Source: Escherichia coli (lineage in GTDB: Bacteria > Pseudomonadota > Gammaproteobacteria > Enterobacterales > Enterobacteriaceae). From it: a stretch of 64,000 nt of DNA. Made by a program: the position numbers and the translations under genes. Positions within the stretch are counted from its first letter, which is position 1. Each line of letters begins with the position of its first letter. The notes beneath the pieces were generated by a model that was given only the letters and a program-made list of their open reading frames with translations, had not been told where the DNA came from and did not search any database. This document shows positions 1,298 through 56,161 of this stretch, piece by piece. The stretch lies in assembly GCF_003019035.1 (NCBI RefSeq), contig NZ_CP027447.1. One strand, given 5' to 3'.

Positions 1298-1531
1298 ATG
1301 TCGCATCTGGATGAAGTCATCGCGCGCGTGGATGCCGCGATTGAAGAGAGCGTCATTGCCCATATGAACGAATTATTAATCGCCCTGAGCGATGACGCGG
1401 AGTTAAGTCGGGAAGATCGCTACACCCAGCAGCAGCGTTTGCGCACAGCGATCGCCCATCACGGTCGCAAACATAAAGAAGATATGGAAGCGCGCCACGA
1501 ACAGTTAACCAAAGGTGGCACCATCCTCTGA
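1298..1531 (+). CDS. ydcY: DUF2526-like small protein, 77 aa
   Basis: Track ORF with GGAG ribosome-binding site upstream; position matches K-12 ydcY. Confidence 0.7.
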   Translation: MSHLDEVIARVDAAIEESVIAHMNELLIALSDDAELSREDRYTQQQRLRTAIAHHGRKHKEDMEARHEQLTKGGTIL

Positions 1532-1981
1532 TTAAAATGTGCGCCTGGCCACCAGCCAGGCGCCAACCACAAGTAAAATTGCGCCACAAATTGGGCCGAA
1601 CAACGCCCGTAGTGGTACGCCATGACTGCGAAAGATATCCAGCACCAGACCGCCAATCAACTGGCTGGCGACCAGTACTGCAATAGTTGTCGCCGCTCCC
1701 ACATTCTGATATCCGCTGATACTGGCGAAGACAAAAAACGATCCCAGCAAGCCAGGTATAAGTGTCCACCATCGCACGCTGGACACCAGTTCGCCAAACC
1801 CCGCCATACCTTGTTTAAACCATAAAATAGAAACAAAGAGCACAATCCCCACCAGTGAGTTCAGCAACATGGCGATGAGAATGGTAGAGGAGGTCTGGGT
1901 GATGCGCACCATCAGCGTGTTCTGGACTACCAGACCAATTCCGGCGGCAATCAAAAAAGCAAGGGTGAGCGACTGATTCAT
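1532..1981 (-). CDS. ydcZ: DMT-superfamily inner membrane protein, 149 aa
   Basis: Track ORF; strongly hydrophobic multi-helix product; synteny. Confidence 0.8.
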   Translation of the reverse strand: MNQSLTLAFLIAAGIGLVVQNTLMVRITQTSSTILIAMLLNSLVGIVLFVSILWFKQGMAGFGELVSSVRWWTLIPGLLGSFFVFASISGYQNVGAATTIAVLVASQLIGGLVLDIFRSHGVPLRALFGPICGAILLVVGAWLVARRTF

Positions 1982-52094: not shown

Positions 52095-53792
52095 TTAGAT
52101 GGAGGTACGGCGGTAGTCGCGGTATTCGGCGTGCCAGAAATTATCATCAATGGCCTGTTGCAGAGCTTCGGCAGACGTTTTCACCGCCACGCCTTGCTGC
52201 TGCGCCATTTTGCCAACCGCAAAGGCAATTGCGCGGGAGACTTTCTGAATATCTTTCAGTTCCGGTAGTACCAGACCTTCGCCGTTCAGGACCAGCGGCG
52301 AATACTGAGCAAGCGTTTCACTTGCCGACATCAGCATCTCATCGGTGATACGTGACGCGCCGGAAGCAATAACGCCCAGCCCGATGCCCGGGAAAATAAA
52401 GGCGTTGTTACACTGGGCGATAGGGTAGATTTTATCTTTCCATACCACTGGGTTAAACGGACTGCCAGTGGCGACCAGCGCGTTACCTTCGGTCCAGGCG
52501 ATAATGTCCTGCGGTGTGGCTTCCACGCGTGACGTCGGGTTAGACAGCGGCATCACGATCGGACGCGGACAGTGTTTATGCATCTCACGGATGATCTCTT
52601 CCGTAAACAGCCCGGTCTGTCCTGAGACGCCAATCAGAATATCTGGTTTTACATTGCGCACCACATCCAGCAGTGACAACACATCGCTGTCGGTATCCCA
52701 GTCACTGAGGTTTTCGCGCTTCTGCACCAGTTTGGTCTGGAAAGGCAGCAGGTTCGGCATCTTGTCGGTCAGCAGGCCAAAGCGATCGACCATAAAGACT
52801 TTCTGCCGCGCCGCTTCCTCGCTTAATCCTTCGCGCTGGGTCTGGGCGATGATCATTTCGGCAATGCCGCATCCCGCTGAACCTGCGCCAAGGAAGACGA
52901 TTTTTTTCTCGCTTAACTGACCGCCTGCCGCGCGGCTGGCTGCGATCAGTGTGCCGACTGTTACCGCCGCAGTGCCCTGAATGTCATCGTTAAAAGAACA
53001 AATTTCATTGCGATAGCGGTTAAGTAACGGCATCGCATTTTTTTGTGCGAAGTCTTCAAACTGCAACAGTACGTCCGGCCAGCGTTGTTTCACAGCCTGG
53101 ATAAATTCATCAACGAATTCATAGTATTCGTCGTCAGTGATACGCGGATTACGCCAGCCCATATACAGCGGATCGTTAAGCAGCTGTTGGTTGTTCGTCC
53201 CGACATCCAGCACCACCGGAAGGGTATACGCCGGGCTGATGCCGCCACATGCGGTATAGAGTGACAGTTTACCGATCGGAATGCCCATCCCGCCGATGCC
53301 CTGGTCACCAAGCCCCAGAATACGTTCGCCGTCAGTCACCACAATCACTTTGATATTATGGTTTGGTACGTTTTGCAGAATATCGTCCATATTGTGGCGG
53401 TTCTGGTAAGAGATAAACACACCGCGTGAACGGCGGTAGATCTCAGAAAAACGCTCACAGGCTGCGCCGACGGTTGGGGTGTAAATGACTGGCATCATCT
53501 CATCAAGATGATTGTTTACCAGACGGTAGAAGAGGGTTTCGTTAGTGTCCTGGATGTTACGCAGGTAGATGTGTTTGTCGATTTCGGTTTTGAATCCCTG
53601 ATACTGGATCCATGCTCGTTCCGCTTGTTCTTCGATGGTTTCGACCACTTCCGGCAGTAACCCCAGCAGGTTGAAGTTACGGCGTTCTTCCATGCTGAAG
53701 GCGCTGCCTTTATTCAACAACGGAAATTCCAGCAATACAGGGCCAGCGTAAGGGATATAAAGCGAACGCTGTTTTTTTGTTTTTGGTTCCAT
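52095..53792 (-). CDS. maeA: NAD-dependent malic enzyme, 565 aa
   Basis: Internal ATG of track ORF 52095..53828; start [18 protein letters not shown] matches my recollection of MaeA/SfcA. Confidence 0.85.
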
Positions 53793-53948
53793 GTCACTCA
53801 CTCTTTTTTGAATATCCATCCCTGGCACGCTTTTATCGTCTTTGCTTTACCGCCAGGGCGTCGGCCCCAAGTATAAAGCAGATAAAAACAAAAACACCAT
53901 TGCGCAGGCAATGGTGTTTAATCGTCATTGAGGACTGATGGTTATGAA

Positions 53949-54086
53949 TTACTTTTCAGCGGGGCGTTTTCTGCCGGTTGGGTTATTTACCACGCTGGAT
54001 TTGTCACCTTCGGTAACTATTTTGCGCTGGTTAGAAATTTTATGGTCCAGTCCAAGAATATGACGTGCCTGACGGTTCGATTTCAT
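53949..54086 (-). CDS. sra: Stationary-phase ribosome-associated protein Sra (S22), 45 aa
   Basis: Hand translation [45 protein letters not shown]; GAGGAG ribosome-binding site; below the ORF-track cutoff. Confidence 0.8.
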
Positions 54087-54187
54087 TTTAACTCCTCAAT
54101 CCTGTTGCTAGTTTTAAGGACAACATCGCCGTAGCGAAGAAACACGTGCTAAACCCCTAAATTAGGTTGCCGATCAAGCATAGCACC

Positions 54188-54403
54188 TTAAAGCGTAGGG
54201 TGCTGGCCACTGACCACATAATTGATCGTTTGCTGGTAGATATCACTGAGGATGTCGTTATCAGAAGCTTCCACCCATTTGGTCAGCTCCATGAGAATGT
54301 CATCTTCAGTGACAACACCGTGCTCTGCCCGAAGGCCTTGCTCAATGGCATTAACCAGAGCGGGTTCTGCTGTTGAATTTTCTGCCTGATAATAAGTAAA
54401 CAT
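54188..54403 (-). CDS. bdm: Biofilm-dependent modulation protein, 71 aa
   Basis: Internal ATG of track ORF 54188..54466; start MFTYYQAENSTAEPALVNAIEQ. Confidence 0.75.
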   Translation of the reverse strand: MFTYYQAENSTAEPALVNAIEQGLRAEHGVVTEDDILMELTKWVEASDNDILSDIYQQTINYVVSGQHPTL

Positions 54404-54747
54404 AGTGATTCTCCGTGTCTGTGTATTTTTGGTGTCTGCTACGGATCGCAGATTTATAAAGCACATTCAGCATGGCAAATATTTGCCGCTTCGTTGTTAA
54501 GATTAGTCCTGGTTGATAGTTTTTATATTTTAACCCCATGATATTGATAGGTATTATTATTGTGGTGAGTTGAATGATATTGATGCAATATCTCTTGAGA
54601 TATATATTCCCGGTAATCTATTGTGGGAATTTAATTTAAGTGCAGAAGTATTATTTTCGCCGGATTTTATTCGGAATATCCTGCTTATCCTCGTGCGGTT
54701 TCTCACGTAGTCTATAATTTCCTTTTTAAGCCCACAGGAGAGCAACA

Positions 54748-55179
54748 ATGACAATCCATAAGAAAGGTCAGGCACACTGGGAAGGCGATATCAAACGCGG
54801 GAAGGGAACAGTATCCACCGAGAGTGGCGTGCTGAACCAACAGCCGTATGGATTTAACACGCGTTTTGAAGGCGAAAAAGGAACCAACCCTGAAGAACTG
54901 ATTGGCGCAGCGCATGCCGCATGTTTCTCAATGGCGCTTTCATTAATGCTGGGGGAAGCGGGATTCACGCCAACATCGATTGATACCACCGCCGATGTGT
55001 CGCTGGATAAAGTGGATGCCGGTTTTGCGATTACTAAAATCGCACTGAAGAGCGAAGTTGCGGTGCCGGGTATTGATGCCTCTACTTTTGACGGCATTAT
55101 CCAGAAAGCAAAAGCAGGATGCCCGGTTTCTCAGGTACTGAAAGCTGAAATTACGCTGGATTACCAGTTGAAATCGTAA
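54748..55179 (+). CDS. osmC: Osmotically inducible peroxiredoxin, 143 aa
   Basis: Track ORF with ribosome-binding site; OsmC/Ohr fold. Confidence 0.85.
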   Translation: MTIHKKGQAHWEGDIKRGKGTVSTESGVLNQQPYGFNTRFEGEKGTNPEELIGAAHAACFSMALSLMLGEAGFTPTSIDTTADVSLDKVDAGFAITKIALKSEVAVPGIDASTFDGIIQKAKAGCPVSQVLKAEITLDYQLKS

Positions 55180-55234
55180 AGCGTTGCCGGATGACGCGTC
55201 AGGCGCGTGATTGCCTGATGCGTTGTTAGCGTCT

Positions 55235-56161
55235 CTACAGCGCCCGCCAGCACCGGATCTCACGTCCGTCCTCCCTTATTGCTAATGATTGCCGGACTTC
55301 ACACCCGTGGGTTGCCAGAGGGCAACGTTCACGGAAAAAACAGCCTTGTGGCAACGTGCGGTTTCCTGGTAGATCCGTTTTACGTAATGCCCATTCTTCC
55401 TCCAGCGGTTTATCAATGGCGGGGAGGGAATCCAGCAATAATCGGGTGTAGGGATGTGCCGGAGCTGTCAGCACCTGTTGCGCGTCTCCTAATTCCACAA
55501 TCTGTCCGAGATACATCACCGCCACCCGATCGCTCATATGACGTATCACCGAGACATTGTGTGAAATCAGCACATAAGTCAGCCCGCGATTTTCCTGTAG
55601 CGTTACCAGTAAATTGAGGATCTGCGCCTGCACGGAGATATCCAGCGCCGAGGTTGGTTCATCAAGCACAATCACGTCAGGCTGCGAAGAGAGTGCTCTG
55701 GCAATGGCGATACGTTGCCGCTGCCCGCCTGAGAACGCATGGGGCAAGCGGTCGAGATACTCCGGACGAATACCCACCTGCACAGCCAGCTCCTCTGCCA
55801 ACGCTCGCCGCTGTTGTTCACTACTACGCTTAGCAATCCAGAGCGGTTCCGTGATGATGCGCCACACCGGTAAGCGCGGATTAAGCGAAGAGAGCGGGTC
55901 CTGAAACACCATCTGCATAATGCGTTGTGATCCTGAACGGATGTACTGCCCGTGGCTCGGTTGCAGCATACCCATTAAAAGCTGTGCGAGGGTGCTTTTG
56001 CCGCAACCTGACTCACCGACGATCCCTAAGGTTTCACCACGACGGATCTGTAAATCAATACCATTGATGGCATGAACATGTTCCGTAGTTTTACCAAGCC
56101 AGTTTTTTCGGGCCGGGAAATTGATATGGACGTCGCGTAACGTTAATAACGTGTCAGACAC
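55235..56161 (-). CDS. ddpF: D,D-dipeptide ABC transporter ATPase, about 308 aa, GTG start
   Basis: Track ORF 55235..56215; GTG (reverse complement of 56159..56161) gives MSDTLLTLRD…; Walker A GESGCGKST. Confidence 0.8.
   Translation of the reverse strand: MSDTLLTLRDVHINFPARKNWLGKTTEHVHAINGIDLQIRRGETLGIVGESGCGKSTLAQLLMGMLQPSHGQYIRSGSQRIMQMVFQDPLSSLNPRLPVWRIITEPLWIAKRSSEQQRRALAEELAVQVGIRPEYLDRLPHAFSGGQRQRIAIARALSSQPDVIVLDEPTSALDISVQAQILNLLVTLQENRGLTYVLISHNVSVIRHMSDRVAVMYLGQIVELGDAQQVLTAPAHPYTRLLLDSLPAIDKPLEEEWALRKTDLPGNRTLPQGCFFRERCPLATHGCEVRQSLAIREDGREIRCWRAL

Follow-up and report, generated by a model that had tools for sequence, protein, structure and literature searches.

The interval between maeA and bdm in Escherichia coli DNA raised the question of which strand carries a gene. 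In the window analysed here, a single stretch of 64,000 nucleotides, the program-made list of open reading frames (ORFs) showed a 68-aa ORF on the plus strand of this interval. A sequence-only reading of the same DNA had proposed that the gene is instead a 45-aa ORF on the minus strand, absent from the list, which it named sra and described as ribosomal protein S22. We conclude, with a probability of about 0.97, that the minus-strand ORF is the chromosomal E. coli sra gene, an intact copy at its normal site between bdm and maeA.

Identity, distribution and name of the minus-strand gene

53949..54086, minus strand: sra, ATG start, 45 codons plus stop (translation, family match and annotation)
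52095..53792, minus strand: maeA (annotation of a 100%-identical record)
54188..54403, minus strand: bdm, upstream of sra (annotation; PF10684, E 3.8e-52; NCBIfam NF008515)
54748..55179: osmC (annotation of the 100%-identical record)

Translation of the minus strand at 53949..54086 reproduced exactly the 45-residue product that had been read by hand, and all 45 of 45 residues were identical to those of Sra from E. coli K-12 MG1655 (b1480; old names RpsV, S22 and protein D). The absence of any match to Sra is excluded by this identity. The coding sequence differed from that of K-12 by a single synonymous change at Val32 (GTG here, GTA in K-12), and the window was 99% identical to K-12 over 621 bp covering bdm, sra and the start of maeA. 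The protein matched the Pfam family PF08136 (SRA_like; "Ribosome hibernation factor SRA") over residues 1-44 of 45 with a score of 108.2 bits (E 2.6e-31; curated cut-off, 25 bits). It also matched the NCBIfam equivalog NF007473 with 74.5 bits (E 6.6e-21; curated cut-off, 35 bits). A search of about 15 billion proteins found the exact protein on more than 1000 contigs under the name Sra. The gene was annotated at identical coordinates in a 100%-identical record (strain SCU-301). This annotation and the K-12 gene order, which is the same as in the window (adhP-maeA-sra-bdm, with osmC divergent), bore out the proposed position between maeA and bdm. These results indicated that the gene is already known: it is simply the reference gene, which has carried a name in E. 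coli since 2001. At 53826..53828, upstream of where maeA is annotated to start, three adjacent bases differed from K-12 (GTG here and CCC in K-12, read on the minus strand). These differences create a GTG, so the ORF lister reported maeA as 577 aa, compared with the annotated 565 aa.

A search of 5,426 complete E. coli genomes found an 801-bp region that includes sra in 5,412 of them, with bdm, sra and maeA annotated in the records listed. The same search gave four matching places on plasmids, and 14-16 of the 5,426 genomes were without a match. Orthologous loci were collected from Salmonella enterica, Citrobacter freundii, Escherichia albertii, Intestinirhabdus alba and C. amalonaticus, together with two metagenomic homologues with 64% identity. 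In Salmonella, C. freundii, E. albertii, Intestinirhabdus, C. amalonaticus and the JGI contig, sra adjoined maeA. The other 64%-identical homologue (L009; Logan ERR12361518 contig, 1501..1635) lay away from maeA; its neighbours were genes for an amino-acid permease and, in the opposite orientation, a beta-propeller (YncE-like) protein. The sra-maeA linkage is thus not universal in the family. The window copy carried the family traits, namely a length of about 45 aa, a strongly basic composition, an N-terminal MKSNRQARH that is invariant in the family and the motif GR(K/H)R at the C-terminus. Across 13 family members, the invariant columns were M1-H9, L11, G12, I17-Q20, K22, G38 and R39.

Variation was also observed on the upstream side of the gene. 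In E. albertii (L005, 1222..1500), bdm was reduced to a C-terminal remnant of about 26 aa by an internal deletion of about 400 bp, and in two Citrobacter loci (L004 and L007) osmC lay directly upstream of sra, with bdm absent. Both sra and its leader were kept in all three loci. In the clinical E. coli isolate MS20673 (NZ_CP082067.1, 1788..2608), an IS1 transposase gene abutted a 5'-truncated sra with a 37-aa product. There, digH and gadC replaced the bdm/osmC side, suggesting that an IS1-associated rearrangement or deletion took place. Since this isolate carries a truncated copy, sra is dispensable.

The label 'ribosomal protein S22' was right in that the gene is Sra, but S22 and rpsV are historical names, and the protein is substoichiometric and dispensable. 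Some older database entries keep '30S ribosomal subunit S22', which would fit Sra being a genuine structural protein of the ribosome and not an accessory factor of stationary phase; the current RefSeq and NCBIfam name, however, is 'ribosome-associated protein'. Previous studies have reported that Sra rises from about 0.1 copies per ribosome in growth to about 0.4 in stationary phase (1:10 to 4:10), which is substoichiometric (PMC8407246, quoting Izutsu et al. 2001), and that the protein is non-essential (PMC10502375, PMC10746276), as the IS1-truncated clinical allele also argues. A sequence search of the PDB with E up to 1 returned no Sra chain, ribosome structures included. The broad phylogenetic conservation expected of core ribosomal proteins was likewise not observed: in a search of limited sensitivity, all 66 named homologues came from Escherichia, Shigella, Citrobacter, Salmonella or Intestinirhabdus. 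The origin of the family has been dated to within the Enterobacteriaceae (bioRxiv 10.1101/2025.11.04.686544). For the K-12 protein, which is identical to the one encoded here, binding to the 30S subunit and a stationary-phase induction have been reported (PMC10502375, PMC9959377, PMC8407246). A structural role is therefore very improbable, and Sra is a 30S-associated protein that is substoichiometric, confined to the Enterobacteriaceae and induced in stationary phase.

Expression signals and leader RNA of sra

54177..54185, minus strand: candidate sra promoter -10 element TGCTATGCT (by eye and conservation)
54126..54137, minus strand: small leader hairpin TCGC-TACG-GCGA (RNAalifold consensus)
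54093..54120, minus strand: predicted leader helix, UCCUUAA (54120..54114) with UUGAGGA (54099..54093), overlapping the Shine-Dalgarno sequence
54092..54097, minus strand: Shine-Dalgarno sequence GAGGAG (read from the sequence)
53892..53919, minus strand: intrinsic terminator of sra, with a 12-bp stem, a 4-nt loop and a T-run (terminator scan)

The GAGGAG ribosome-binding site pointed out in the sequence-only reading was located at 54097..54092, 5 nt upstream of the ATG. Its AGGAG core was invariant in seven aligned orthologous leaders and was present too in an eighth, that of L009. At the other end of the gene, the terminator hairpin started 30 nt past the stop codon. In the consensus fold of the terminator, all 12 of 12 pairs were kept over seven orthologues, including one compensatory change from U-A to C-G in three sequences, and the T-run was invariant.

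On the promoter side, TGCTATGCT directly followed the bdm stop codon (54190..54188) and could be read as an extended -10 element carrying C at -13, an arrangement typical of sigma-S promoters. The element was identical in Salmonella and E. albertii and differed by one base in Intestinirhabdus and the JGI orthologue. A sigma-70 consensus scan gave no minus-strand promoter upstream of sra and did not report TGCTATGCT. The literature gives sra two promoters, that of bdm and one of its own (PMC10746276), and the 'native promoter' fragment that partly complemented a delta-sra strain begins at AGGTGCTATGCTTGATCGGCA (PMC8407246). The start of this complementing fragment coincided with the TGCTATGCT site. 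Position, form and conservation make TGCTATGCT a candidate sigma-S-type -10 element of sra's own promoter.

These signals also bear on whether the ORF might be a pseudogene or a silent copy of sra in this strain. Truncated sra alleles do exist elsewhere, as in the 37-aa IS1-adjacent copy of MS20673 and the partial entries among the homologues, but none of them supports such a state here. The frame in the window was full length, and its protein was identical to the functional K-12 Sra. Apart from the synonymous base in the coding sequence, the gene differed from its K-12 counterpart by one leader base, 22 nt upstream of the ATG, which fell outside the Shine-Dalgarno sequence and outside both predicted leader helices. 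No change from K-12 was seen in the Shine-Dalgarno sequence, the terminator or the -10-like element. An inactive copy is thus extremely unlikely, and the sra gene in the window is read as intact.

The leader between the promoter candidate and the start codon was folded both as a single sequence and as an alignment. In the RNAalifold consensus of seven orthologues, four of the six pairs of the small hairpin showed two-sided changes that preserved pairing. The helix nearer the start codon comprised eight pairs, with 98% of cells paired over the seven orthologues, and it was present in the single-sequence minimum free energy fold. Its changes were one-sided (G-U to A-U), and none was compensatory. 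If formed, this predicted helix would sequester the Shine-Dalgarno sequence. The fold of the single leader sequence was no more stable than those of shuffled sequences (z = -0.31), so the proposed structure rests on the comparison of seven sequences. An Rfam scan of 53000..55500 with E up to 1 returned three sub-threshold chance matches and no known RNA family in the leader or the terminator. Binding of CsrA to the GGA-rich leader was also considered; published leader fusions were without CsrA regulation (PMC10746276).

There is a small chance that the hairpin and the helix form an undescribed cis-acting element affecting translation or mRNA stability. If so, such an element could help to confine Sra synthesis to stationary phase or persistence, apart from transcriptional control. 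If the locus holds anything undescribed, it would be in this leader, for which the evidence, from seven sequences, is thin.

The 68-aa reading frame opposite sra

53928..54134, plus strand: spurious antisense ORF, 68 aa, TTG start, codon-aligned opposite sra

The absence of sra from the ORF list, which the sequence-only reading had remarked on, was confirmed and traced to the settings of the lister. By default, the lister drops ORFs of fewer than 60 codons, and sra is missing for this reason; when the program was rerun with a minimum of 30 aa, the 45-aa ORF was listed. At the default cut-off, the 68-aa plus-strand ORF was the single ORF overlapping 53900..54150. Length in itself is a poor guide at this scale. 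As many as 60 ORFs of at least 30 aa overlapped the 5 kb around sra, so a 45-codon ORF by itself is no more than would be expected by chance. The case for the 45-codon ORF as a real gene rests on its identity with Sra and on the comparison of orthologues, not on its length.

The comparative evidence was obtained from a codon analysis of eight orthologues from several enterobacterial genera, which gave 41 gap-free codons. In the sra frame, the pooled pN/pS was 0.29, and the pairwise dN/dS against E. coli ranged from 0.02 to 0.49. The variable columns were distributed over codon positions 1, 2 and 3 as 19, 13 and 32, respectively. This substitution pattern indicates that the sra sense frame is under purifying selection. 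By comparison, the pooled pN/pS of the antisense frame was 1.41. The antisense frame contained stops inside the sra coding sequence in four of the eight orthologues (C. freundii, E. albertii, C. amalonaticus and the Logan sequence), and was thus interrupted even in E. albertii, the closest relative. The 68-aa product matched no Pfam or NCBIfam family, its exact sequence was not found among about 15 billion proteins, and the ORF was listed by no annotation in the records examined. The antisense frame stays open wherever sra does without the sense codons TTA, CTA and TCA. The 68-aa ORF is therefore a by-product of sra codon usage and is spurious, as had been thought probable from the letters alone.

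The reverse assignment, with the 68-aa ORF as the real gene and the 45-aa minus-strand frame as chance antisense, can draw on the 68-aa ORF being the sole one of at least 60 aa in the interval and free of stops within the sra coding sequence in the other four of the eight orthologues, but its codon-aligned position opposite sra explains this openness, and together with the TTG start, the interrupting stops, the pooled ratio above 1 and the empty family and database searches leaves the assignment a negligible probability. With sra as the gene, the interval offers a lesson of method: when ORFs under 60 aa are left out of a track, real small genes go unseen and a spurious antisense ORF is shown in their place.

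Putative function of Sra and comparison with stationary-phase ribosome factors

Sra is a strongly basic protein, with a pI of 11.04 and 11 K+R residues against 4 D+E residues. Its AlphaFold2 model was of low confidence (pLDDT 66.9, pTM 0.30) and contained only a short N-terminal helix, lying over the invariant MKSNRQARH segment. Such a low-confidence model is consistent with disorder of the protein off the ribosome.

Previous studies have reported that Sra rises in stationary phase under the control of ppGpp and RpoS (PMC10502375) and that CsrA represses it indirectly during growth (PMC10746276). In early stationary phase, Sra is found on ribosomes together with RMF, HPF and RaiA, and it vanishes in step with RMF (PMC9959377). 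Sra is reported to contribute to persistence and to antibiotic tolerance: in a delta-sra strain, tolerance of antibiotics after HipA induction was strongly reduced (PMC8407246); earlier deletion studies reported no phenotype (PMC10502375, PMC8407246). Sra reportedly leaves the distribution of ribosomes between 70S and 100S states unchanged (PMC10746276), and reviews describe its function as that of a 'putative hibernation factor' (PMC10502375, PMC10746276).

On this background, a working mechanism can be outlined. Sra may be a cationic peptide, for the most part unstructured, that would dock on the 16S rRNA of idle 30S or 70S particles, alongside RMF, HPF and RaiA. Once docked, it could help to keep ribosomes silent and protected during starvation, acting as an accessory hibernation or protection factor. 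We infer that a hibernation-type mode of action is the most likely one for Sra, and it is regarded here as putative. As a discovery, the locus carries little weight: the copy is identical in protein to the reference, and the window adds nothing on the binding site or mechanism of Sra.

Two known systems provide the comparison. The first is the sra locus of K-12 MG1655, in which the protein, the gene order, the Shine-Dalgarno sequence and the terminator are as in the window, the two copies being set apart only by the synonymous coding base and the leader base described above. The second comprises the stationary-phase ribosome factors, such as RMF, which like Sra are small, induced in stationary phase and bound to ribosomes, and which share with it control by RpoS and ppGpp and indirect control by CsrA. 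Sra differs from these factors in having no ribosome complex in the PDB by sequence search and in the reportedly unchanged 70S/100S distribution, and it is without detected sequence kinship to them, PF08136 being its sole Pfam match. Restricted to the Enterobacteriaceae, Sra is also much younger than the factors with which it shares the stationary-phase ribosome.
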